Positions 2,038-47,639 of a DNA stretch of 64,000 bases are shown piece by piece. The first letter of the stretch is position 1. Each line of letters starts with the position of its first letter. Source of the stretch: Girardia tigrina (lineage: Eukaryota); assembly GCA_001938485.1 (NCBI GenBank), contig MQRK01246274.1:1-64000 (forward strand), given 5' to 3'. Made by a program: the position numbers and the translations under genes. The notes under the pieces were generated by a model. That model searched no databases and was not told the origin of the DNA. It worked only from the letters and a program-made list of their open reading frames with translations.

Positions 2038-2669
2038 TGATTATGTTCTTTTTTATTGCTTTTATATAAGAAATGAATGATTATGCAATCACTTACGTAA
2101 GGCTAATCGAAAACTCTTAACAAATTAGTTGAGAGTGCTGTTTGAACATTGATTTTTGGATCACATGATCTTATCAACAATGCTTCACATGACACTTCAA
2201 GAATTCGATCTTGAAATCAACAAATAACATTTTAAATTTAAAAATTATTTCTCAATCATTTAAAGTTGAGAATATGTTTTGCAATAAATCCTTTAGGATT
2301 ATGTTCGGACATTGTTTATCAATACACATGTAATGGGTGCAATACCACATACATCCGAGAGACTGTCCGTTATCTCTGCAAACGAGTCCAAGAACACAGT
2401 CAAAAAGGGGGAAAGAGAAATATTGCTGAGCATAAAAAAACGTGTAAATGTAAAATAAGCATAAATGATTTGAAGATTTTGTGCAAGCATTTTCAAAATT
2501 ATTGGGAGAGAGTGTCATGTGAAGCATTGTTGATAAGATCATATGATCCTAAAATCAATGTTCAAACAGCACTCTCAACTAATTTGTTAAGAGTTTTTGA
2601 TTAGACTTACGTAAGTGATTACATAATCATTCATTTCTTATATAGAAGCAATAAAAAAGAACATAATCA

Positions 2670-2712
2670 GTGATCTGATGATGACGGTTAAACCGTCGAA
2701 ATTTATTATCCT
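2670..2712 (+). ncRNA. Minimal hammerhead ribozyme (PLE type)
   Basis: gtgat-CTGATGA-tGACGG ttaaa CCGTC-GAAA-ttta-TT-atc: conserved core boxes, 5-bp stem II, short stem I. Confidence 0.75.
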
Positions 2713-3306
2713 AAAATATATTTTTAAATGGCGTTTATTTGTTAATTATTATTTTGAGGAATATTTTAAACTGTGTATGAATGGAGTGCGTTTATTTGAG
2801 TGTGTGGAAATAGGAAAAGTGTACTTTATTGTATTTGCGATCACTGATCATTTGAACAGAATTTACATTTATAAAATTATTAAAAATTTAATAATCCAAT
2901 AAAATTTAGATTTATAAATAATAAAAATAATTTTAAATATAAATAATCTTTTTCAAAAAATTATATGAACACATTTAGCATATTAATTACATTTTAAGAT
3001 ATTTTAGAGGTTCGAAATAATTTTACAATTAATTTTAATTATTTTTTATAATTTAATGAAATATTTTTGAAATAAATTGAAGCATAAAAAAAAGTAATTT
3101 TTTGTTATCTAATTGTATTTAAAAATACTTTTTCATGGTGAATTTTAAATGAAATTTAAATAAAATAATTTTTAAGTTACAAACACAAAGTTAATTAATT
3201 TTATCATGGTCATATAATTATTTTAAATTAAATAAATAATAAATGTTACTGAGAAATAAGAAGATATTTTTGAATAATCATTATTAAAAATCGAGAAATA
3301 ACACTA

Positions 3307-4515: not shown

Positions 4516-5792
4516 TTAGGTGTACAACTAATTAATTTCGTATTTGTTACGAAATAACCTTATATTTGTATTTGTTACCTCATTTCGAATTTGTTACTAA
4601 ACTCATATCTATTTATGTAGTCAATAGTCAATTTTATTGAATTTTAGTAAACACACAATTTTTTTTTATTACAGTCAAAATGTCAAATTACGTTCCAACA
4701 AAACAGCATTTGCGGGGAGGTTTGCTTTTGTTCTTTAATTTAAGGAAAAGTGCAACAGAAGCACATCGTTTACTCTCAGAAGCTTATCCTGAATATGCTT
4801 CAGAGGTTAGAGTATGTCAGCAGTAATTTGCACGACTTAAAAGTGGCGATTTTGACACAGAAGACAAAGAGCGATCAGGTCCATCAAAAAAGTTTGAAGA
4901 CAAAGAATTGGAGGCCTTACTCGATCAAGATCCATGTCAAACTCAAGAAGAACTTGGAAAAACATTGGAAGTCACTCAACAAGCCATTTCTAAACGTTTA
5001 AAAGCAGCAGGATACATTCAGAAACAAGGAAATTGGGGCCACACGAATTGAAGCCGAGAGACGTTGAGAGACGACTTTGCATGTCTGAAATGCTGCTTAA
5101 TCGCCACAAAAAGAAACCGTTTTTACATCTTATTGTCACTGGCGATGAAAAGTGGATTTATTACGACAACCCAAAGCGTAAAAGATCATATGTGAAGCCA
5201 GGTCAACCAGCCAAATCGACACCAAAGCCGAATATTCATGGTTTGAAGGTAATGCTCTGTATTTGGTGGGATCAGAAGGGTGTACTGTACTATGAGCTGT
5301 TAAAATCGGGTCAGACGATCACGGGAGAGCTATACAGGCAACAATTGATACGTTTGAAGCAAGCAATAGCCGAAAAACGACCAGAATGGGCGACCAGACA
5401 CGAGAAATTGGTTTTCCATCATGACAATGCTCGGCCACATGTTGCAGTACCGGTCAAAAATTATTTGGAAAATGCTGGATGGGAAATTCTACCTCAACCG
5501 CCTTATAGCCCAGACATAGCTCCTTCTGATTACCACTTGTTTCGGTCGATGCAGAATCACCTGTCTGGAATACGGTTCACCAATATTGAAGGTATTAAAA
5601 AATGGCTTGATGACTTTCTCGGCGCAAAAGATGAGAAGTTTTTTTGGGATGGAATCCATAAATTGCCTGACAGATGGGAAAAAGTTGCCGCTTCCGATGG
5701 ACAATATTTTGAATAAAATATTTTTTCACTTTTATACTTAAATAAATGGTTTTTTAACAAAAAAATACGAAATTAATTAGTTGTACACCCAA
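4516..5792 (+). mobile_element. Full-length mariner (DD34D, Mos1/mauritiana-like), 1277 bp
   Basis: 30-bp TIRs TTAGGTGTACAACTAATTAATTTCGTATTT with 1 mismatch; TA TSDs at 4514-15 and 5793-94. Confidence 0.96.
4680..5716 (+). pseudogene. mariner transposase with one stop and one frameshift
   Basis: Begins MSNYVPTKQHLR. Stop TAA at 4824; 1-nt deletion in the WVPHEL motif (~5037). TGDEKW, HDNARPH and YSPDIAPSDY are intact. Confidence 0.93.
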
Positions 5793-16200: not shown

Positions 16201-16931
16201 AAATGGCACTTAATCAAATCACAAAGTCAAATAACAGATTGTTTTTTCCTCAAAAAATCCAAAATTTGGTTTGATAAAATTCAATCTACCATTTTTGATG
16301 ACACAAAAATACAACATTTTCTGTCTGGATTCGAAAAGAGAACATAAATATATTTGCCCGTCAATCAACCGGCAATGGGGAATTTGCGATTGACTTCACA
16401 ATTTATAATTATGGGGAAAACGGATCAAGGAAATCTTTGGGTTAATAGTCGAAATACAAAATTAAATAATATACAAGAAAAATATTTATATTTACACTCT
16501 ATCATTTTTCGACGCGATCGGTTCCTGAAAGTCGTTGCGTAAATAAATACAAATTTATTGCGAATATAGGCTTACGAAATGACATAGATGCAACAAATAA
16601 TTTCCATTTTTTTTAATATATGAACACTAAAATATCAAAAATATAAAATACAAGATGAAATAAAGTTTGAAATTCAAAATTATCTTATTCAGGTGTAAAT
16701 ATTTTTATTTATAACAAACAATTTTGTTTTGATGGGTACCCGTATCTAAAAATAATGACAGGATACGAGTACGTTATTAATCGGACAGAGTTGGAAAGGG
16801 ATAGCGAGTATCCAGTGGATAATTTGGGGGAGTAATATCCAACATTATCATCAAAATAAACGAAGAGAAATATTAATTTATACATTTTAGTTAACTATAA
16901 CTTATACATTAAAACAAATTTTAATTATCAC

Positions 16932-17387
16932 TATTAACAACATCACAATTTGAATGCAAACATTTATTGACAACACAAACAGATTCTTCACAACAATTCT
17001 CATTGATCATCTTTCTTTGATTGATATAGTTTTTTGTTAATATATTCAAATCTAAAAAAACAATGAATGGGAACCATTAATAATAAATTTTAATTTCTCA
17101 TAATTTTTATTGGATAAAAGTCATTACATATTTTTTTAAATAAACATTAATTTTTAAAATATATTACATTTAATAAGTTAAAATCATTTAGTGAAAATAT
17201 TATTAAAATTCATAATTATCAAACTTTAATTAATTAGTACTTAAAATTAATATCATTAAATTAATTTCCTTAGATTCAAATAATCAATCAATAAACATAT
17301 CAATCTCATCTGAGTAGGAGAGTCACAAATCTAAACAGCATACAAACAACAAACTTACAACATTCACAATTATCCCTCACAATCACA
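16932..17387 (-). repeat. Unclassified dispersed repeat family X, copy a
   Basis: Near-identical reverse complement of 28200-28648. Confidence 0.9.
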
Positions 17388-17569
17388 AATAATTAATCGT
17401 TGTCACTGTCTTACTTGTGTTGACTGATCCATAAGTGGTCTCTAATTTTGCATATTATATTCTATAAAACGTCATTGTTTGTATATTTTTGTCCCATTTA
17501 TTCTTTATGAAGTTCTTTGTATTTTAGCATACATAGTTGCAAATCGTTTTGAAACTGTCTGACACGCTG

Positions 17570-21032: not shown

Positions 21033-21150
21033 GACATCCTATCTCTTTCGAATGGTATTGAGTCTCTAGGCTCTTTAGAGAGTCAACCCAAACTAAATCA
21101 CTAACAGCCCCCCTTGATAGGCCTCCTAAGGGCTCGAATAGCTTCGGTCT
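21033..21150. repeat. GC-rich structured element Y, copy 2
   Basis: Aligns by eye with 35589-35702 (aatggtattgag..ggctctttagag..acccaaactaaa..gataggcctccta). Confidence 0.8.
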
Positions 21151-24100
21151 CCAAGATTTATATCATCCATTATATTTTAGTAAGGATAATAAGAAAGAAG
21201 TTATAAAGTCTCATTTGAACAAAGAATATGTATTGGAAAAATGAAACTTTCAGGATGAAGAGATGGATGAGGAGAATAACTAATAATGATAATTTCAGTA
21301 GACCAAGTTTGCCACTAAACTGAAATTGGCTTTTTTGTAAATATTTAAGCAAAAGATAGAACGAACTGATGAATGGAATTGAGAGAAGTGGTTGCAACAT
21401 CAATATCAGAATTCATTTTTTAACACCACAATTTATTAATATCACAACAATTCACATCTTTAAACAAATTTTTCTGTTAATTTAATTATCTCGCCACAAA
21501 TTAATCTATTAAATTCTTTTCGATTCAATTTTTAAAATCTTGCAAATTTATTAAATAATTTCACATTAAAACTAAAAATTTATTTTAAAATTTATTTAAA
21601 ATTGTTTTATAACTTTTATTAAAATATATAAATTTTTATGACTGTAAAAATATTTTTATTTATAAATAAATATTTAATATTTAATGGTTTTCTTATCATT
21701 TTTAATTTTAAGATATTTAATAGATACATTAAAAAGATATTTTTTATTTTTAAATAGATATTTAATTTTTTTATGATTATCTTTTATTATATCATTTTTA
21801 ATTTTTAAAATATTTAAAAAACACATTAAAAACATATTTTATTTTTAAATACGTGTTTGATTTTTTTAATAGTTGCTTTATTAATTATTTATAATTTTTA
21901 AATATTTAATAAGCATATTAACATTAAAATATTTTATCTTTTAAATTAAAAAAATAATAAATTATTCTGGTGAGATGCAAATTTAAATTAACCCCTCATA
22001 GGAATGTTACTTAATTGATGAGTATTATCAAATATATGCTATTTTAGATGAAAAAAATCAAGATGAGAAAGAAGCGCGCAAAGGTACAGACATATGCGTA
22101 ACCGGTCCCGAAAGGGTTCATAATATTATAAAAGAAAACAAGTGATCTAATAAAATTGATAAATAAATATTATTTTATATAATATTAATTTATGATTTCA
22201 TACATATTTGTTCAATGATATTTAATATTTTACTTTTATACCGTGAAATAATTAATTTTTATTTTTATATATAATTAGTGGATTTTTATCATTTTAATTA
22301 CTGTTTTCTGGAATTTCAAAATTGAGACAGGAAATTTTTCTGTTTAGTAGAGGCACGTAGATTTGCAGATTTGAGACTCACTTCCTATTGAAATGGTTTT
22401 CCCGTAAAATTGACTTCGTCGAGAAACATTGTTGAAAAATAAAACGTATAAAACTGTATCAAATCGTATAATCAGTTGGAAAAACGGTAGGTTTTTGTTC
22501 TTTGCTAATTGATGTGAAGTGGTATAAAAGTTTTTTTCGACTGAGTATGTGGATCAAATAAAAAATGAAAGTATTAAAAAAATAAAATTAAAAAAATTAA
22601 TCTTTATTAAAATAATTAAAGAATATTTGTTCTTAACATTAATGAAAAATAAATTTTATTGCTTTAAAATAAAGAAAATACGGATAGTGCAACAGGAAAT
22701 CCTCGTATTTATAACTTTAAGAAGAAGAAATAAAACGGGAATATTATTAGATTACTAAATTTATGGCTTTTAATTGAGTTTTCTTGGTTCTTTTTGCTGC
22801 GCAAAAAGTAGAATTTGTGGCGATGCCAAAAGTATAAAAACGATCAAACACATTTTTGATTGATATAAGATTAAATCGATTGCTGCAATATTGTCATACA
22901 ACGGAGGAGAATCTTCTGGCACCAAAATAATATTTATTATTTTAATACACTGAATTTATTTTGTCATTCATTATTTCAAGAACGAAATCCACATTAAACA
23001 CCTTTAATATTCATTTAAATCCTTTTAAGGAAATAATTTTTATTTGTTATTTAAGGTAATGCTGAAATAATTATTTTTTATAATAATATTTATTTATTAA
23101 GGATCAAAACGTAGAGGATTAAATAAAACTCACCTTTAACCCCATGATTAAATCTATAAAAATTACATCTCATTCTTAGAAAATATATCTTTTAATAATA
23201 ATAAGGAAACTTGAATTTATAAAAAAAAACGATCCGAACAATATGAAAAGGGTTCAAAGATCAAGTTGTAATGATGAAATATATGATAAACATTGTTTAT
23301 TAAATCAAATAAATCACATAAAATTTAATACAATCTCATATTCAAATAGACAAATATTTTAACGAAATAAGAAAAAAATAAAAAAAAATAAATATTAATC
23401 ATATTCTAAAAATAACAGAAACTTGATGAAATATTTCAATCAAATCTTCGAAAAAATATTCAAAAACACAGAAAGAAAAATAATTAAATATAATTATAAT
23501 AGAAAATTATATAATAAAAAATATTTTAAAAAATGTGTTATTTTTTGAAAATTTAATCCTCATTATCTCTAATTTGGAATTATTTGAAATTTAAATATTT
23601 AAAATCTAGAATTTGTTCTCTAAAAATCAATCTTGCAATCTTTTTTTGTGAAATCCCACCATTTAATGAGAATTATTTCCTAAAATTTCTTGTCTTTAAT
23701 CGTCTATGAATTCATTCTCAATATCAAGTAATTTTTAAACAATAAATTTATTTTTTAAAAAATAATAATAATAAGTTATTATGTTGACTAATTTATTTGA
23801 AAAGGTTTTAAAAGGAACTTTTAAAAAATTAGATGATAATGATGGAAGGTCTTCCAGATGGTAACTTAATATTATTTAGAAATATTTTTTAAGGCAGCTT
23901 TATAACATTATATTATTTCTAAGATAATTCTTTAAATATAATATTTTGAAATATATATCCACCTTTAAATCTACTTTTTATATTCTAGTTACAATATTTC
24001 TAGAAACCAAAACATTTAAATCAATATTCAAATATTTTTTTATTATATATATATATATATATATATATATNNNNNNNNNNNNNNNNNNNNNNNNNNNNNN

Positions 24101-27400: not shown

Positions 27401-28199
27401 TAGATTAATCTATAATATCAAATTTTTAAAAATGTTAAACTAAATATAAGTTTTGACTAGATTTATTTACTTAATAAAATAAACGTCAAGATTCTGTTAG
27501 TTTGGTTACTCTCAGTAGGATATGCTTCATAAGTATCGTCTTAAAGTGTCTCTAAAACTGAATCCTATAGGATAAAAAAGACTGATGTTTGAAAAAAGTA
27601 TTACAATAAATTTTAAGATACATGATCCGGTGTTAAATATGATCAACTCAACATTTCAACAGGTTAACACAGATTCACTTGCTAAATCAAAATTTAAGTA
27701 TTAATTAATATAAAATATCTTAAATTATTTTTTGTTTACCTTTTCGTAAAAGTATTGTACATATTTTTTACTTATTCTTAGTTCATATAAGAATTATAAA
27801 TCAATTAAAACAACCCAACATTTCCCATACTTTTTTTTCATTTATTTTTAATTACATTCTTTTCCTTATTTACAAAATGCAAAATTAGATGTATGAAAAA
27901 TAATTAGTAAAGATATATAACAATTTTATCATAAAATTTAATAATAATTTTTAAATTCATTTTTAATTAATTATTTCATTATTCGTATTTTCAAAATTAT
28001 TATTGTTATAATTATTTAATTTTGATGAAAATATGATTAAAAGTTTTCAAATATCTTTTATTAAAAATAAGATAATTATATTTCTCAAATATTAAAAAAA
28101 ATTTTTGATTTTTCAAAATCCTCATCAAAATTGAAACTTTTCACCTTAAACATATCTTTTCACCATTAGCTGGACGGTTTTAACTTGAATTATTAGTTT

Positions 28200-28648
28200 T
28201 GTGAGGGATAATTGTGAATGTTGTAAGTTTGTTGTTTGTATGCTGTTTAGATTGGTGACTCTCCTACTCAGATTGGATTGATATGTTATTGATTAATTAC
28301 TTAAATCTAATGAAATTAATTTAATGATATTAATTTTAAGTACTAATTAATTAAAGTTGGATAATTATGAATTTTAATAATATTTTCAGAAAAATGATTT
28401 TAACTTATTAAGTGTAATATATTTTAAAAATTAATGTTTATTTAAAAAATTATGTAATGACTTTTATCCAATAAAAATTCTGAGAAATTAAAATTTATTA
28501 TTAATCTTTCCCATTCATTGTTTTTTAGATTTGAATATATTAACAAAAAACTATATCAATCAAAGAAAGATGATCAATGAGAATTGTTGTGAAGAATCTG
28601 TTTGTGTTGTCAATAAATGTTTGCATTCAAATTGTGATGTTGTTAATA
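28200..28648 (+). repeat. Repeat family X, copy b
   Basis: Starts TGTGAGGGATAATTGTGAATG. GTAAGT at 28223, ttttttAG at 28528, ATG at 28570 giving MINENCCEESVCVVNKCLHSNCDVVN. Confidence 0.9.
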
Positions 28649-28840
28649 TGGTTACTATTATTCAAATTTTTTTTGAAAAAAAATTGTAAAAGCTTTTTAA
28701 GAAATTGATTATTGTAAATGTTTCGGAACGGTAGCCGGACAGTTGTCCACACGGAAATTTGCCCACAGTTGTTTTTTATGCTGAATTTTATAATTTCCGA
28801 ATTCATGAAATTGGCAAAAATATTTTCATAGAATATTTTC

Positions 28841-35074: not shown

Positions 35075-35588
35075 TTTCTAATTCCCTAATTTCTCTTTCA
35101 TTTCAAAAATCTCTAATTCTTTGAATTTTCTTTTGTATTAACAAAAAGTATTTTAAGTCCATATTAAATGAAACATTTTAATCTGCAATAAAATTTTATA
35201 TTTCTAATTGAAAATGCAATTTCCATCTCTCGAGAGAATCTGTAAGTTTTACTTGATTGAATTAAAGTTTAATTAATATTCATACAAACCAATTAATGAA
35301 AACAAAAGAAATGTAATTATTTTTAAAATTTAGATCAAAATTCCCATGCTAATAATTAAAATAAAAGAATACATCCCATTAATTTATTGAAGTAATGGAT
35401 ACATTGAATCAACGAGGACCTCGAGCTTTTATTGGCAAAATGAACGATACATCTGGATCAGCGTTATTTTATCAAGATTAATAAAGGATCATATAGGGGA
35501 AATCATAGAAGTTGAATGAAGATTAAGATATAAATATTGTAATAACTTGATTTTATTACTCGACGTTAAGATTGTATAACTTGTGAGT

Positions 35589-36332
35589 GGGCCTCCCATC
35601 TCTGTAATGGTATTGAGCCTAAGGCTCTTTAGAGGGTCCACCCAAACTAAAGTCCTTAAGGGCCCCCCGATAGGCCTCCTACGGGGTCAGTGGCCTTCCG
35701 CCNNNNNNNNNNNNNNNNNNNNNNNNNNNNNNNNNNNNNNNNNNNNNNNNNNNNNNNNNNNNNNNNNNNNNNNNNNNNNNNNNNNNNNNNNNNNNNNNNN
35801 NNNNNNNNNNNNNNNNNNNNNNNNNNNNNNNNNNNNNNNNNNNNNNNNNNNNNNNNNNNNNNNNNNNNNNNNNNNNNNNNNNNNNNNNNNNNNNNNNNNN
35901 NNNNNNNNNNNNNNNNNNNNNNNNNNNNNNNNNNNNNNNNNNNNNNNNNNNNNNNNNNNNNNNNNNNNNNNNNNNNNNNNNNNNNNNNNNNNNNNNNNNN
36001 NNNNNNNNNNNNNNNNNNNNNNNNNNNNNNNNNNNNNNNNNNNNNNNNNNNNNNNNNNNNNNNNNNNNNNNNNNNNNNNNNNNNNNNNNNNNNNNNNNNN
36101 NNNNNNNNNNNNNNNNNNNNNNNNNNNNNNNNNNNNNNNNNNNNNNNNNNNNNNNNNNNNNNNNNNNNNNNNNNNNNNNNNNNNNNNNNNNNNNNNNNNN
36201 NNNNNNNNNNNNNNNNTCGATCTTTCCATCCATCTTCAGTAAGTTTTCCTGCAGAACGTCTCTTTTAAATTCACCGAAACTGTACTCGGCTCCAAAGAGC
36301 CAGTGAGCATCCACTCTGAGACATTCTACCAG
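35589..36332. mobile_element. Insertion Y (GC-rich structured end, internal N gap) flanked by a 13-bp direct repeat
   Basis: ATAACTTGTGAGT occurs at 35576-35588 and at 36333-36345; the empty-site junction is seen in the inverted copy at 36982-37004. Confidence 0.7.
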
Positions 36333-37243
36333 ATAACTTGTGAGTACAATTTCCATCACTATTAAGAACATTTAAACAAGTCTCGTTTAAATCTTTATAA
36401 CAATTACATTTAGAGTCATTACAACTTTCAGAAGGTCTTTCATCTTTTGTCATCGTTCTAATTGGTTTTCTTATTTTCAGTTTTTAATCATGATTATTCG
36501 AACAATTTTTCTATGTTATCTTTTAAAATATTTAACCTCTAAAAAATATTAATTAAAAAATATTAATTTTTACCATTTCTCAATAAATCTCAAAATAATA
36601 AAAATGACATCAAATTATTAAAAATGCATTTTTTTAGTAAAATTTTATAAGTTCATATCTTTAATTTCAGAATTAAAATTAAGTTTAATAATTTTAGTAA
36701 AATTTAAATTAAATGCATTTTTAATAATTTGATGACATTTTTATTATTTTGGGATTTATTGAGAAATGGTAAAAATTAATATTTTTTAGAGGTTAAATAT
36801 TTTAAAAAATAATTTAGAAAAATTGTTCGAATAATCATCATTAAAAACAGAAATAAGAAAACCAAATAGAAGGATGACAAACGATGAAAGACCTTCTGAG
36901 AGTCTTAATGACTCTAAATGTGATTGCAATAAAGATTTAAACGAGACTTGTTTAAATTTTCTTAATAATGATGGAAATTGTACTCACCAGTTATACAATC
37001 TTAAATAATTTGATGTCATTTTTAATTTAAATTTTACTAAAAATTATTAAACTTAATTTTAATTCTGAAATTAAAGATATGAACTTATAAAATGATTATT
37101 TTAATTATGTTCGAACTTAATAAAAAAATACCAATTTCCATCTGGTGGGAGAATCACCATTCTAAATTCAACATACTTAAATCAACATACGGCATCACTA
37201 CATTTACACATTCAAACAATTTAAAATATTCCTCACAATCACA
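36333..37243 (-). repeat. Divergent family X copy e with internal inverted duplication
   Basis: 5' TGTGATTGTGAGGAATA and the motif gtgattctcccaccagatgg; Cys-rich start MTKDERPSESCNDSKCNC. 36333-36631 is inverted to 36711-36994, and 36642-36713 is inverted to 37021-37093. Confidence 0.75.
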
Positions 37244-37904
37244 ATTGGAAAAGATATTTGTTAGAAGAGCGAAATTATCTGAACCCTTTACATATTTTTG
37301 TTGTTTCTTAATGCAGGAAGTCATCGAGGTAGTTCAGCAAATCAGCCTTTCACTTACGTTCACTCGCGATGGGAGATGTAATCAAGGATTCTTCCTGATG
37401 GTAAAACTACCATTGACGCAATTTTGACTTTCTTGAGGTGAAGTGAAGGAATAATCCAGTCATAATATTTTTGCTTACATTTTTAGATCTTTTTTAATGA
37501 TCCAGTTTTCCTATTTCGTTCTTTTCCGTAATAAGAAGCATGAAATTCACTTATTTCAGCTTAATGTTTTTTTTAATTGTTTTGGTGCTCAAGATTAAAA
37601 ATCTTCCTTAGGAATTAAAATCTGATAATTTTCGACAAAAGTACATGAAAAGAGTACGATTTTCAACTCAATTTATTGTAAAATATTTATTGTAAAACAA
37701 AGCCCCCCTCAGTGGCATTTAAGTACTTTCAAAACAGATTAGTCATTTCAATTATAAAAATTTATGATAAGAATTTCAGTATTGTAGTAACTATAATGAC
37801 ATTGTTAAACTCATTATAATAATAATCTATTTATATTTATAAAACATATTATTAAAGATAATGGGGAGTCAAAGAAACATTAAGACATTTGAAAATTTGA
37901 CTCA

Positions 37905-39317
37905 ACTCAACCAGCCAAACTTTATGCACTTCCAACAGTTCATAAAAATGGCCTTCCTTTGCGTCCCGTATTATCTATGGTTAATACATCTCAATATGAA
38001 GTAGCGAAATATCTTGATGGTAAATTAAAGCCCCTTCTAAAAAAGGATTTTAATTGTTTTGATAGTTTTGAATTTTTTGAATTTATTTCAAATTATAAGA
38101 TTAGTAACAAAAATGAAATTATGGTTTCTTTTGATGTTGTTAGTCTTTTCACCAATGTTCCTCTGGAGGAAACGTTTGATTTATGTTGCAATCTTTGGAA
38201 AGATAATGTTGGAGAACACCATCTTATCGATGAAGTTGCATTTCGTGAATTGTTATGTTTTGCCACTTCTAATATTCATTTTCTTTTTAATAATGAGTGG
38301 CATAAACAGGTTGATGGTGTTGCAATGGGTTCTCCATTAGCTCCAACGCTGGCTTCAATACTTTGGTCAAGTATTGAAGATAAGATCGATTTGTTTCCGG
38401 GTCAAAAACCTTTAGTGTATAAACGCTATGTTGATGACATTTTTCTTATTTTCGATAATCAAATTGATATAGATCCATTTTTAGGATACTTAAATTCTTT
38501 GCATCCGAATATTAAGTTTACAACAGAGAATAATGGTAAATTATCTTTCCTAGATTTACTGATTGAAAGGAAAAGAGATGTTTATGAGACTGAGATTCAC
38601 AGAAAGACAACTGATATTGGGCTATATACAACGCCAAAAAGTTTTTGTGAATCTCGATACAAATATAATATGATTAGAGGACTAATTTTTCGATCTTAGT
38701 CATTATCATCAACTTATACAAAAAGTTGTGATAGCATTTACCAATTAACTAAATTATTGAATAAAAATGGTTATTCAAAATCAATTGTAAAGAAATTGAC
38801 CAAAGAAACAATTGATATATTAATTAATAAACCGATTAAAAATGATAAAGAAGACTCAACAACTTTAAAATACGTTTTAAGCATTCCATATTCAGAGGGA
38901 TTTGGTCAATTTAAACGTTCAATTTTAAAATGCGTAAATAATGCCTTTAATTTAAAAATAATATCACAAACATATAAAATTCAAAATGTATTTTGTAATA
39001 AATCTCCAACCCCATTTGGATTATGTTCGGATGTCTTCTATAAATTTACATGTAATGGGTGTAATGCCGCATATATTGCAGAGACGTCCAGACATCTTTG
39101 TAGGAGAATCCAAGAACATGGTCGGAATGTAGATGGGAGTAATATTGCAGAACACAGAAAGGGTTGTAAGTCGAATGAAAACATAAACATAAAAGATTTT
39201 AAAATTATGTGTTCTCGTTTTGAAAACTATTGGGAGAGGGTGGCCTGTGAAGCACTTTATATCAGATCTTTAGATCCTAAGATTAATGTGCAAACGGGTC
39301 TCACGAAAACCCTATAG
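37905..39317 (+). pseudogene. PLE reverse transcriptase / GIY-YIG endonuclease
   Basis: LYALPTVHK..LRPVLS, SFDVVSLFTNVP, QVDGVAMGSPLAP, RYVDD, FLDL, then VFYKFTCNGCNAAYIAETSRHL..RIQEH. A single in-frame TAG at 38697 separates the two listed ORFs. Confidence 0.93.
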
Positions 39318-39397
39318 AGCGTGTTTAGATAACATAATAATCAATTGATGATATAATCACTGCTTGCATATATAGCAGATTTTAAATTAATTTTTTC

Positions 39398-39444
39398 TTG
39401 AGACCTGACGATGACGGTTATATCGTCGAAATTAATTGTCTTAA
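39398..39444 (+). ncRNA. Minimal hammerhead ribozyme
   Basis: ttgagac-CTGACGA-tGACGG ttata TCGTC-GAAA-ttaa-TT-gtcttaa: 7-bp stem I, palindromic stem III. Confidence 0.85.
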
Positions 39445-40371
39445 AAATAAATGTTTATTTAATAAATGGCGTATTTTTACCTTTAAAAATAAGTTTCCAT
39501 CATTTTTTAATTTTTTGAATATTTCATTATATTAAAAATTTTTAAACACAAATATATTATAAAAACTCTTGAAAATTTTATAAACTTATAGAAATATCTT
39601 TTAATTAAAATATTTTAAATATCACTATTATTAAATAATTTTCTATTTAAAAATAGTTATATTAAAATTGATTTTAATTGTTACTTAAAAAATTAACAAT
39701 GAGAAGGTACAATATGTCCTGATTAAGGTCCATCCTTATTAATCAAGAAAAACACCCAAAATAACCAAAACAAATTCCCTTTTCGTCTTTGACCAAAGTA
39801 TCTAAATTCAAAACTTCTTGTAATTATAATTTTGAATAATTAAAATTTAAATATTTACAAAATGTTATTAATTTTAACATAATGCTTCTTTTTTGTTTCA
39901 ATGAATAATCAAATATTATTTGTTTTAATCATATTGTTTGCTATGATGATTTTTTTAGATTGTTTTCTTTCATCACATTAATGAAAAGAAAGATATAAAA
40001 TAGATAACGGCTTATATGTATATATTGTTTTATAATTTGCCTCGGGAAATTTTGAGAGTAAAAAAAATAATAAATTTTTATCTTTAAAAAAGTTTGAATA
40101 TTGCTAAAATAATAATAAAATAATGATAAAGGAGGGACATGGTTGAGAGAAACATGAGATAAAATGGGAAATGATTAACGAGACAGTCGGATTTGCTTCT
40201 TTCTGAAATATTATTTTTAATTAAGGATTAAATTGATGTGTTTTTGAAAAATATTTTATATCTTTTGCAGAATAATATATTTTTAACAATTTTATGCATA
40301 TTACATAATGATAATTATTGTTATTATAGTTATAATAATAATAATAATAATAATAATTATTATTATTATTA

Positions 40372-42878: not shown

Positions 42879-44700
42879 NNNNNNNNNNNNNNNNNNNNNN
42901 NNNNNNNNNNNNNNNNNNNNNNNNNNNNATATATATATATATATATATATATAATTAATAAAAATATGATTATTTGAAAAACAGTTATTTAAATTGATTC
43001 GTATAAAATATATAAAATATAAAAATCATTAAATAGTTTAAAAAATAAAAATTATAAATTTAAAAAAATTAAAATAAAAAATTAACATAAAAAATCTGTC
43101 TCTCTTTCATATTAATTTTCAGTTAATATTTTTGACCAACAAATAAAAACAAATTTATGTTTTAATGGAATAATTAAATAAATATTTTCCGTTTTAAATT
43201 TTTGTTTTTATTTTTTTTCTTTAGTGAAATGAAATGAAAAATTCAATAAATTCCCATAAAAATCGATAAATTGATTTTTATTGTTTTTTCGTAATCTAAA
43301 ATTAAATAATTCCATAAATTTATTTTACGAAAAAAAGTTATTTATTTATTTATTTTTTTGGAACTGAAATTTTATTTTAATCAATGAATAATTAATTATG
43401 CATAGAATTTTTGTTTTAATTGAATAAATTGTTTTTTCAATAAATTTCACTGGGTTTTTTTTACCTATTTTAACTCAAAAAAAAGAAAAAAAGCACTTAA
43501 AAAATAGTTGTTGAAAATGTAGTTTCAGTTGTTTAAATTGTCGAAAAGATTTATTTGTTTGAATAATTCGAAATTTATAATATTTCTATAACTCTCCCCA
43601 CACCAGTTTTTACGTAGATTTTTCGAAACTTTTTTTATAATTTTTAAAATTTTATTAAAATTTTTGGGTGATTTTAGAACGGGCATATTATCCCATAATT
43701 CCAAATCAATTATATCTATCATTTCTTAAACAAGAATCTAATTTATTTACAGAAACATTGACTGATTGAAATAATTTGAGATGTCCATTTATATTCCTTG
43801 ACTCAAACTGGGAAATAAATTAAAAACCTCAGCCAAAAGATAAATATCAAATATCAATCATTCCCTTCTTTCATATGGTTATTTATACCGATTATTGAAG
43901 ACAAACAGTTGACTTTAATTTATTGTTTTAATGCCTCAATATTATCTTTTTCTTGTCAAAATAGGACTTCATACTGATAATTCTCCAATTTACTTACATG
44001 TTCTTTTCTTCCTCCTTTTGTCTCTTATCGGCATTTTTGTTGGATGTTGTTTGGAAGAGGATTTTGGAAAATGACGTTTGGCATTTGATCAGAAGAAAGA
44101 TTGCTAGAAGTGTTTCTTTACAAAATTAATCGACATTTATGAAAATTAATTTTAAATGGGTTATAAATTTTGACAGAACATCATTAATTAATGTTTTTCA
44201 GACGAAAATTTGACAAGGGAAAGAAGTATTAGACAATCCGAAAACAATTATTTAATCATTTTAATACTTTAGGAAGAGAGAGGAGAAAGAAAACGTCACA
44301 TTTTAATCCGATTGATGTCGAATGTTATTGCCAAATGATCGCAATTCGGAGATGGGTATCCAAAATTATAAGAACTCACATATTTGTTATTACTTTTATG
44401 AGACATACAATTAAGATCATCCTTTGGACAAACCGTAGTCGATCTTTCATTCGTAGACATTGTTCTTGATTCAAATTAAAAATATTTTTTTCTAAATCTT
44501 TTTCATTCGAACAAATATTTACGAGGATTTTAATTTAAATTTAATGATAAATATTTTCTTCAAGTTATTAAATTTGATGATGTAAATAATTATTAATCTT
44601 ACAACATTTAAAATTTTATCTTTACTTAAATATTGATAAAACGAAGTCCGGATGAAAGTTTTCTTTTAATAACCAAACTCGTCCATTAAAAAATATATTT

Positions 44701-44748
44701 TACGACAATATATTTCGACGGATCTACCGTCATCTTTAACTCACTAAT
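44701..44748 (-). ncRNA. Hammerhead copy in inverted pLTR, CUGA box mutated
   Basis: Minus strand reads tgag-TTAAAGA-tGACGGtagatCCGTC-GAAA-tata-TT-gtcgta. Confidence 0.6.
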
Positions 44749-45173
44749 TAATAATCAATTCACCTGCATATAAATACAAAAATGATGATTATGTAATCGA
44801 TTGCATGAAATAATGCTAATCAAAAATTCTCAATAAGCTGGTTGAGTGTGATGTGTGATGATGTCTATCAATAATTTTGATAGTTTAAATAAAAGTAAAT
44901 TTGCTACACAGAATAAGAAATTAAATAATTTAAGAAAATTATTTGGAGTTTTTAAATTTGATGTTAAAAATACTATTATTAATTTGAGTAATGTAAATTT
45001 ATTGGAAGAGAGTGTCGTGTGAAGCATTGTTAATTAGGTCACGTTGCCCTAAAATCAATGTTCAATCGGCAGTCTCAACAAGCTTATTGAGAATTTTATG
45101 ATTAACATGATTTCATGCAATCGATTACATAATCATCATTTTTGTATTTATATACAAGTGAATCGATTATTAA

Positions 45174-45220
45174 TTAGTGACCTGAAGATGACGGTAGATC
45201 TGTCGAAATATATTGTATTA
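45174..45220 (+). ncRNA. Minimal hammerhead ribozyme
   Basis: ttagtgac-CTGAAGA-tGACGG tagat CTGTC-GAAA-tata-TT-gtatta. Confidence 0.72.
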
Positions 45221-45794
45221 AAATATATCTACTTAAATAGTTAGTCAAATTTGTTGATCATAAACCATTGAAAAATATCAATCAACCTTCTGGTAGTAGA
45301 GACACAATACTAAAAATAACATCAAATTATATACAAAATACAACACATGTTATACCATTCAAAATATTCCTCGTGTATTCCTCTGGAAACAGTTTATTAA
45401 ATACCATTATATTCCCATAAAAAGAGTTTTAATTTCTTGCTGAATATTTAACAATATAAAAGTCAATATAAAAAAGAGTGTTTGTGGTCTATAAAACTTT
45501 GTTAATTTAATTACGTAAAAGTCACTTACGAAATCTTTTAAATCACAATTTAAATAATACTTGTTTACGATGAAAATGTTTTCAAAGAACATAAATGTTT
45601 TAAAAGAACTTAAAAGTAAATAAATAAGTTGAACCTGGAATAAAATACAATAAAATGAGGATAATTTTATTGAATTTCTATTTCTTCCATGAAAATGTTT
45701 TCAGAAACTTCTAAATTATACACCAATGAAAGGTAATTGATGTGCTCAAATGTTTAGTCGAATAAAAATAATTTTCCAATGTGACCTTTATAAC

Positions 45795-46160
45795 TGTGAG
45801 GGATAATTTGGAATGTTGTAAGTTTGTTGTTTGTATGCTGTTTAGATTTGTGACTCTCCTACTCAGATGGGATTGATATGTTTATTGATTGATTATTTGA
45901 ATCTAATGAAATTAATTTAATGATATTAATTTTTAAATACTAATTAATTAAAAGTTTTATAATTATAAATTATTAATAATATTTTTACTAAACGATTTTA
46001 ACTTATTAAATTTAATATATTTTAAAAATTACTTAAAATTTTATCCAATAAAATTTTGAGAAATTGAAAGTTAATATTAAACTTGTCCCATTAATTAATT
46101 TTTAGATTTGAAAAAAACAAAAAATATATCAATCAAAAAAAGATGCTCACTGATAATGGT
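45795..46160 (+). repeat. Repeat family X, copy c
   Basis: Same TGTGAGGGATAAT start as copy b and aligns with it up to just past the ATG. Confidence 0.88.
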
Positions 46161-47639
46161 TAAAAAAGAAATAAATCGTAATCGTGAAAACACAATTTAG
46201 AAAAGATCGAATCGAATAATTAAAACAGTAAATCACAAAAATATTGATTTACAAAAAAATAGAAAAAAATCATAACTCTGACAAAACTGATTAATTATTG
46301 AAATTATAATTTCGAATACTGTTGTTTCATCCACTCACTTTGATTGACTAGCCAATTGGAGCGAGTCGAACCACTCAATCAAACTTCCAATCGAGACACA
46401 AACACCAACGACTTTTTTTTCTAATACACTACAGGGTTTTTTTAAGAAAAATTCACTAGGGGCACAAGCAATCTGGAATGGTCATGGGCCGAAATAAAGC
46501 AACTTTTTTGTTACGGATGAAAATAGTTATTTTTCTTTGTTTTTCTAGTGGTCTTTACTATTCTAAACAGTTTGTTCATCAAGTGTTAAAGACGTTTTAA
46601 TCGGGGTAGTATAATATAAATCGCCTGTTGGGTTCTTGGTCAAGATTAGAATTCATGAACACAAAACATTATTTATATTACAAGAACAATTATTCAAACT
46701 TTGGCGAGTGCAATTTGCACCACCAACTTCCGTCGTTGGAACGGGAAGAAATAAGACACGACTGGAATATAAAATTTATTTATGTATAGAACGAATACAT
46801 GACCCGAATCGACACAATAATTGGCATAGATCCACGAGTCTCGTCTGGGCATAGTTGGGATGACGATTGACAGTCCGTTGAGCATATTGATTGCGATTCT
46901 GGTTGGTGTTCTTGTGGATTCGTGTGTTTTTGAGTTTTTCGCCAATTTTTGATTAGTAAAACAAAACATTATTATTTTTGTTTCTTCTGTTAATTTTTGA
47001 ATTTTAATTTAAATTGTTTTTTGTGTTTTTTTTGAACACCACACAAACAATTTTTCATGAGGAACTTTTCTTTAGTTTTCTTTTGACAAGATTAATCATA
47101 CATAAAAATACTGAATTATAAATACTGATAAGTTATTTATTAAAACGTTATTTTAAAAGTTGAATTTATTATTTTTTCATTTCTTTAATTTATAGATTAA
47201 CATTTTAATATTTTATAGAAATTTTTTAAAATACATTATAAAATCTACATAATTTACTGTTTTATTTTGTATCATTTTTAAAACACATTTTAGTTAAATT
47301 ACAACGATTTCTATTAATTTAAAATACATTGATGTTGTTAATTCAATATTATTTATTTAAAAACCATTTAACTTAAATATAATTTTAGATCTTTAAAATA
47401 TTTAAATGGTACACCTACTGTTAAAATAAAATTTCTAAATATTTTTTATTCTTCGTTAATTTTTAAAACATTCAATTATAATTATTTTTTAATACAAATT
47501 TCGGGTTACAGTTAACTGCAATAAAACATTATGATTTTTTATTTTACAACTTAATTTTATTTACAATGTTTGTTACTCAGAACTATTTATTTCCAAAAAA
47601 AGTCTTGTCCAATAAATTAAAAATTTTGTTTTGAATTAT

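Follow-up and report, generated by a model that had tools for sequence, protein, structure and literature searches.

In R2, the fingers are N-terminal and the restriction-like endonuclease (RLE) is C-terminal, Ingi/Vingi elements are of the APE-RT type with C-terminal C2H2 fingers and with a 5′ HDV-like ribozyme in L1Tc, and Tx1L is a member of the L1 group with two open reading frames (ORFs). Tx1L of Xenopus laevis was reported to insert in Tx1D (PMC1950540) and is one of the TE-targeting LINEs already known (PMC1950540, PMC8869645), and most reported target-specific LINEs were described as members of early-branching RLE clades or of the Tx1 and R1 clades (PMC4640811). RTE elements used for gene insertion were reported to integrate broadly, and Vingi-1 was listed as random in its insertion (PMC13708176). 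A split insertion signature was described for LINEs of the RTE clade, namely the plant Au-related RTEs and Bov-B (PMC6007223, PMC13295347), and an HDV-like ribozyme was reported at the 5′ junction of RTE (PMC3774820), as is predicted for the element described here.

The window, i.e. the whole stretch of 64,000 nucleotides of Girardia tigrina DNA that was analysed (contig MQRK01246274.1), was found to contain an insertion, Y, which is most probably a truncated copy of a tail-less APE-RT LINE that uses RGTG-N10-T^AC sites and has its main landing place at one base of the GIY-YIG endonuclease gene of Penelope-like elements. Like elements of the RTE clade, this LINE was found to contain a single APE-RT ORF, target-site duplications (TSDs), an RNA 3′ end matching the first target bases and a recognition element upstream of a cut at T, at a distance of about one helical turn, whereas a fixed GTG box was present instead of a T-stretch, together with three C-terminal C2H2 fingers and no microsatellite tail. 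RTE-1_MD was listed as random (PMC13708176), whereas more than half of the copies of the LINE were found at one base of another element.

Like Tx1L, the LINE is an APE-type element found at a fixed base of another transposable element (PMC1950540). Tx1L was described as stringent, whereas the LINE was found to contain one ORF and an RTE-like RT and to be relaxed in its specificity, with a motif that can be read from its off-target sites; in several host families it inserts at the catalytic motif of an endonuclease encoded by a retroelement. Zinc fingers, a 5′ HDV-like ribozyme (predicted here), possible co-transcription with a repeated host and stacking at one site are shared with R2 and other RLE site-specific elements, but the LINE has an N-terminal APE endonuclease and C-terminal fingers. 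The single ORF and the C-terminal fingers resemble those of Ingi/Vingi by description, whereas the nearest relatives of the LINE contain RTE-type thumb motifs. In the literature searched, with Repbase and Dfam outside its scope, both TE-targeting LINEs and the split signature in RTEs were known but the combination seen here was not found, nor was any RTE-type LINE with Penelope endonuclease genes as its target; a description of the family may exist in Repbase or Dfam. The 'inserted into Penelope' passage in PMC3846280 was found to concern Asn-rich segments.

Structure of the locus

The following features were assigned at the locus and at a second, related fragment of the window.

35576..35588, minus strand: 3′ TSD copy, 13 bp (ACTCACAAGTTAT in element sense)
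35589..35655, minus strand: 3′ UTR of the LINE, 67 nt, ending in ..GGGAGGCCC without a poly(A) or microsatellite tail
35656..36332, minus strand: C-terminal part of the ORF, from residue 889 of 1145 (end of the RT thumb) to the stop
35703..36216, no strand: assembly gap of 514 N, under-sized, as 607-612 nt are present there in the ungapped copies (n=10)
36333..36345, minus strand: 5′ TSD copy at the 5′ truncation point
36346..36360, minus strand: upstream target half, with the A-GTG box at 36360-36357 (-15..-12) and T at -1 (36346)
36360..36631, no strand: arm 1 of repeat X, the end of a high-copy non-coding dispersed repeat; not the target family
36642..37004, no strand: arm 2, a local inverted duplicate of the end of X plus about 37 bp of flank, containing the empty site (36982-36994)
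37021..37240, no strand: rest of repeat X, in normal orientation
21033..21155, minus strand: decayed 3′ fragment of a sister LINE family, Y2

The 13-bp direct repeat ATAACTTGTGAGT was found to be exact at 35576 and 36333, with no third occurrence within the window, and the inverted arm was found to carry the site without the insert at 36982-36994 with one mismatch, so that the repeat and the empty site noticed in an earlier, sequence-only reading of this DNA were both recovered. That reading had also proposed target-primed reverse transcription, and the repeat was found to be a true TSD: the direct repeats, when compared between loci, were locus-specific and varied in length, mostly measuring 10-13 bp, with 10-15 bp in 11 new sites. 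The 3′ end of the plus strand at 35588 (..GT) would have been the primer for reverse transcription.

The stretch 36333-36994 was found to be an imperfect palindrome (84.6% over 688 columns). An 18-mer spanning the insertion site was found twice in the 1.43-Gb assembly (26% GC, fragmented and with haplotype duplicates), both times in the window, and the empty site is therefore a local fold-back duplicate. Over 253 columns compared with other X copies, 9 and 6 private changes were found in the two arms, with 1 shared change. As the arms have thus diverged separately, the fold-back duplicate is likely to predate the insertion of Y and so to preserve the pre-insertion site.

Anatomy of the LINE

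Y had been left unclassified and was read as a possible non-autonomous retroelement of 744 bp (35589-36332) with only one other copy. It was found to be the 5′-truncated 3′ end, on the minus strand, of an autonomous LINE of about 3.85 kb, and its own length, when corrected for the gap, came to about 840 bp. Hundreds of copies exist: a 29-mer from the 3′ end of Y was found 691 times in the genome, each an exact 3′ end, and 167 exact 5′ ends of the LINE were found. The left 114 nt of Y matched at 100% in 40 of the 40 candidates scored, out of 1522 in the genome. The copies were found to contain a fixed 3′ end, a variable 5′ end (truncation) and TSDs of variable length, and in the longer ones the minus strand goes on to encode RT and APE.

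The LINE was found to contain a single ORF with APE, RT and three C2H2 fingers, preceded by a 5′ HDV-like ribozyme fold and followed by no tail. The protein (P0001, 1145 aa) encoded by full-length copies matched RVT_1 (4e-33) and Exo_endo_phos_2 (1.5e-6), contained three spaced C2H2 finger patterns, and was 95% identical to that of locus L128, several family members being 1145 aa long. Its nearest solved relative was LINE-1 ORF2p (2e-24). In the window copy the three fingers fall inside the assembly gap, and their sequence was taken from other copies. About 260 nt separate the 5′ end from the APE start motif in L135, i.e. a short 5′ UTR without ORF1. A SINE was considered for Y and rejected, the full-length copies being coding with several members of 1145 aa. 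By its sequence, the window copy is an ordinary truncated product of this autonomous LINE, about 840 bp long and starting at residue 889.

In all of the 80 loci, the 3′ end ..GGGAGGCCC adjoined the TSD with nothing in between, and in 78 of the 80 the junction then began with AC. The 3′ UTR was found to fold no better than its shuffles (z -1.06). The 5′ end matched HDV_ribozyme RF00094 (E 0.0026) and RF02682 (E 0.005) in Rfam, both below the gathering score. It folds like an HDV-like ribozyme, with a nested double pseudoknot, a G-U at the cleavage site, and the P1 and P3 pairings present in 42 and 46 of 47 5′ ends, respectively, and self-cleavage is predicted. The first G of the predicted ribozyme was the exact start in 8 of the 11 full-length loci chosen without a 5′ pattern. 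An AlphaFold2 model built on a 6-row alignment had a mean pLDDT of 42.5 and was not used, and a search of the ESM Atlas with residues 780-1145 gave generic C2H2 clusters only. An internal stretch resembling the target TSD was seen about 870 nt from the 3′ end of the LINE (e.g. L089, L331); 5′ truncation junctions sometimes lie near it, which suggests microhomology-guided 5′ joining.

In an RT tree of 16 rows, the multi-finger proteins (6 rows) were found to form one branch with a support of 100/100. In a larger RT tree of 156 rows, the multi-finger branch contained 38 rows (SH-like 96), 35 of which had at least two fingers. RT identity was 29-35% with plain RTE-like proteins and 27-28% with two more distant rows. 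The single ORF without ORF1 and the short 5′ UTR are features of RTE elements (for their single-protein design see PMC13708176), and the split geometry and the T at -1 were also present, whereas microsatellite-like 3′ repeats and the T-stretch were missing. The LINE is accordingly called RTE-like, and is not filed in the RTE clade, because the trees contained no named RTE references and the tail and T-stretch of RTE were missing.

The split insertion signature

In the first set of sites outside Penelope, 9 of 9 sites of the family of Y (Y1), the window site included, were found to contain GTG at -14..-12 and T at -1, and two further sites of this set fitted the signature after a 2-nt shift only. 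With the prediction fixed beforehand, 129 ends outside the standard Penelope junction were listed, 40 new ones were fetched and 14 were resolved; three of these were then left out, being a duplicate, a false internal match and a degenerate Penelope site. Among the 11 sites kept, two of which belong to the same repeat, GTG was found at -14..-12 in 9 and T at -1 in all 11, an excess of GTG with p 5e-18 against a background of 0.0077 (0.8%). A matrix from 18 non-Penelope sites was found to read RGTG-N10-T^AC, with an A-rich spacer and a box of G17/18, T18/18 and G18/18; its +3 column is biased, the out-of-sample pattern having excluded A at +3. The loci L039, L134 and L354 fitted the signature only with a shift of 1-2 nt, and L318 (Y2) was off by one. 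Among the full-length 5′ ends outside Penelope, the strict motif was found within 3-22 nt in 10 of 24, against a null of 1.3%; stacked sites make up 4 of these 24.

By its motif, the window copy is a motif-bearing landing outside Penelope, and the locus is valuable as an off-Penelope landing that exposes the recognition motif. The filled arm was found to read GTG and the empty arm ATG (36968-36970), a single case in which the change may postdate the insertion. A second recurrent target was found in an unassigned repeat with short internal repeats, which contained 13 insertions at a fixed site behind an AAAGTG box; the site fitted the signature in 2 of 3 resolved cases. That this second repeat is hit at a motif-like site argues that the motif, and not Penelope as such, is read. 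The insertions in question are those of L006, L021, L072, L272, L283, L299, L348, L350, L358, L360, L364, L376 and L383.

In Penelope, the GTG box was found to lie in the second Cys codon (TGT) of CxxC and T^AC in the Tyr codon (TAC), and Penelope is the main landing place, probably because these conserved codons spell the signature. The most-hit Penelope family scored 14.3 bits with the matrix, and two rarely hit families 9.6 and 4.9. About 6,800 strict Penelope sites were counted, and about 1.8e5 sites with the minimal signature, the latter by crude extrapolation from 8 matches in the window. Penelope sites are thus at most a few percent of the minimal-motif sites yet take more than half of the insertions, so that a longer preference or pairing of the RNA flank must add to the motif.

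Proposed mechanism

The LINE would be co-transcribed from host promoters, followed by the release of the 5′ end of its RNA from the co-transcript by the HDV-like ribozyme. The GTG/CAC box and the cut are about one and a quarter helical turns apart; the LINE protein would bind the box, and APE would nick the opposite strand at GT^A. The 3′ end of the RNA (..GGCCC-AC) would pair with the freed GT, reverse transcription would start there, and the TSD would result from a second nick at a distance of 10-13 bp. In the window copy, reverse transcription would have halted after about 840 nt. In Penelope, the insertion splits the YIG motif, so that the copy hit would be inactivated; the target would be kept intact at the 5′ junction of the insert, and this would account for the stacks.

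The zinc fingers are the domain most likely to bind the GTG box, at roughly even chances, with APE as the alternative. The sub-mechanism in which recognition of cut site and box alike falls to the APE domain by itself, as was proposed for the RTE T-stretch, and the fingers bind RNA or hold the complex, is plausible and is put forward tentatively. In finger-less elements of the RTE clade the signature was reported to be split, with about one helical turn between its distal part and the cut (PMC6007223), and the endonuclease domains of Tx1L and R1Bm were reported to be specific by themselves (PMC1950540); however, the box of the LINE is G-rich, nearly invariant and 12-14 bp away from the cut, and its branch has kept two or more C-terminal fingers in almost all of its proteins, as counted above.

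Pairing between RNA and DNA is a rather unlikely source of the extra preference for Penelope, as a self-reinforcing addition to the protein-read signature, in which tail-less transcripts from Penelope-resident copies would read through into ACAUCGGAGAG.. and this flank would anneal to the nicked target. The lack of a tail, the AC start of nearly all the junctions and, at the hot spot, the identical orientation of the LINE and its host are in its favour, as are the extra AC/ACA of L039 and L134, absent from the 5′ TSD copy, and restarts such as ACGCCC-ACATCGG at L236. Pairing of an RNA 3′ end with the target was also described for R1Bm, the I factor and R2Ol (PMC6007223). Against this, the junctions outside Penelope were found to contain no Penelope letters past +2 or +3, and L024 and L218 differ in the opposite direction.

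A compact single-ORF APE-RT with a split signature of about 13 bits would allow a direct test of distal DNA recognition coupled to an APE nick, with a natural series of on- and off-target insertions already in hand. More speculatively, and with less than even confidence, sequence-specific integration could have arisen here a third, independent time among APE-type LINEs. In this reading, the C-terminal fingers of a deep branch related to RTE would recognise a distal GTG box and be tuned to codons in which Penelope has no freedom to vary (CxxC and the catalytic YIG tyrosine), so that the LINE would home on and disable its rival in many Penelope families and might then be co-transcribed, and even copied, by Penelope.

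The Penelope hot spot

Many 3′ flanks of the family were found to translate to IGETNRHLKTRISEH, matching the endonuclease of the Penelope-like elements of the window (tblastn with the endonuclease of the element at 37893-39314, E down to 1e-35). This element was found to contain RVT_1 (1e-10), a weak RE_Eco29kI match (0.001) and CxxC..YIG, followed by the presence of a hammerhead-like core downstream. The cut was found at one base (Y^IGE) of the GIY-YIG endonuclease gene, where the YIG tyrosine is split from the upstream codons. The homologous base was found to be used in several divergent Penelope families, and several inserting families stack at it.

An identical 22-nt Penelope flank was found at 145 of the 691 exact 3′ ends. 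In the Penelope family with this flank, 283 exact sites were filled and 672 were empty, i.e. one retroelement fills about 30% of them at the catalytic motif, an interference between transposable elements large enough to bear on Penelope activity. Among the first 100 listed 3′ ends (80 fetched flanks and 20 from the exact-junction list), 50 were found directly at Penelope and 9 at a Penelope TSD before another stacked element. The remaining 41 were assigned to other places, with a few cases of degenerate Penelope or of other stacks included, so that the LINE lacks the concentration of nearly all copies at the target that marks a Tx1L-like LINE. Among the distinct full-length 5′ ends, 41 of 65 were found to follow the upstream half of Penelope (40 by script and L225 by eye), with junction lengths of 4-21 nt. 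The family preferentially lands in Penelope, with many truncation points and TSD lengths, and its insertion specificity is relaxed, about 40% of the Y1 copies and most of the sampled Y2 ends being outside Penelope.

Of 71 loci with a Penelope junction, 33 had no readable 5′ end. In the 38 left, Penelope was found on both sides in 22, with inserts of about 220 to 4060 nt, a target deletion was found in 3 more (by eye), and no upstream Penelope was found in 13. It is improbable that amplification produced most of the hot spot, with a few insertions in Penelope copied as composites by the Penelope machinery, and as a main cause this is largely refuted: the shared orientation of LINE and host and the 13 loci made up of a 5′-truncated LINE and a Penelope tail without upstream host, several of them ending in (TA)n, would suit it, but at least 22 of the 38 loci have both host halves with differing insert lengths, the full-length copies have different 5′ junctions, the base is shared by several families of host as well as several of inserting element, and sites outside Penelope bear the same signature. 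A distal flank was shared by 0 pairs among 19 loci, and no TSD enclosing LINE and Penelope tail together, as 3′ transduction would leave, was found in the 16 loci searched for one. The 13 loci without upstream Penelope could have arisen by deletion, by misassembly or as composites that Penelope spread; up to 13 of the 38 copies may thus be secondary, and the independent share would then fall towards 40%.

A truncated LINE with a complete Penelope tail, often with a (TA)n end and no upstream Penelope, was seen in L056, L128, L327, L332, L334 and others, and hitch-hiking of the LINE on Penelope transposition is possible there. In the contigs of four runs, presumed to be RNA and carrying no strand, end or read-through information, LINE and Penelope parts were covered and the empty site was present.

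Other short or related elements were seen stacked at the same sites in L002, L003, L017, L026, L071, L074, L082, L280, L288 and L298. These stacked elements have different HDV-like 5′ ends, and L017 contains one of about 310 bp with its own TSD. The Penelope-like elements of the window were found at 37893-39460 (plus), 2242-2760 (plus), 58456-58009 (minus) and 44683-45270; three of them contain a hammerhead-like core behind the ORF and two contain empty lower-scoring targets (2337 and 58382).

Repeat X and the sister family Y2

Repeat X, which the sequence-only reading had proposed as the target of Y, was found to be non-coding, with at least 2000 candidate loci in the genome. The cut lies in unique DNA beside X, 14 bp outside it: in all of the 19 other X loci, or about 13 once haplotype-like duplicates are removed, X was found to stop at about 36360, followed by a different flank. 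The proposal of a parasite of another transposable element held in so far as the family prefers to land in one, but the host is the Penelope-like elements and not X; the copies sit mostly in unrelated flanks with respect to X, and not with respect to Penelope. The other option of that reading, that Y belongs inside a longer X and was deleted from it, is excluded by the unrelated flanks of Y genome-wide and by the lack of the site in the X copies. The end of X is fuzzy and may have supplied the upstream GTG box at the window site, since about 3 of 13 independent X loci likewise run on with AGTG.

Taken whole, both versions of that reading (a non-autonomous retroelement with X as its target, or a microhomology deletion that removed Y from within X) are scarcely credible: the TSD and the empty site are real and the GTG box abuts an end of X that may continue with AGTG, but the family of Y is coding and autonomous, the 18-mer across the site was found in the window alone, X sequence was absent from the 80 sampled 3′ flanks (by eye), and the second supposed X segment, at 21395-21450, is not X, as four comparisons with shuffled sequences gave p 0.11-0.81 and tblastx gave E>1.

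The fragment at 21033 had been taken as a copy of Y and was found to be nearer to the sister family Y2 (score 119 vs 104), with 21037-21135 being 82% like the end of Y. Y2 was found to have 1177 exact 3′ ends in the genome, and about 3 of the 29 sampled were found directly at Penelope, plus a few stacked (read by eye). A Kolobok/piggyBac-like foldback with TTAA ends was considered for X and is unlikely, the other copies being single-armed and in one orientation. A search for a Penelope pLTR in X gave no hammerhead motif and no Rfam hit, and its tblastx matches were of low complexity only. Within 36333-37240, the fold-back duplication of X was seen to extend about 37 bp beyond the end of X into unique flank.

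Other features of the window

An Rfam search of the window gave (TA)n-driven miRNA matches only. A Frizzled-domain gene was found on the minus strand with two exons, 25033-24674 and 6534-6253, 18 kb apart (Fz E 7e-6 and 9e-21, respectively), and Y lies about 10.5 kb upstream of the first of them. Remnants of mariner-type transposases and a fragment of DUF4371, a hAT-associated domain, were found at 4994-5713 (plus), 31545-30913 (minus) and 63401-63006 (minus). Three copies of another dispersed repeat, 84-94% alike, were found at 16911-17394, 28188-28674 and 45787-46161.
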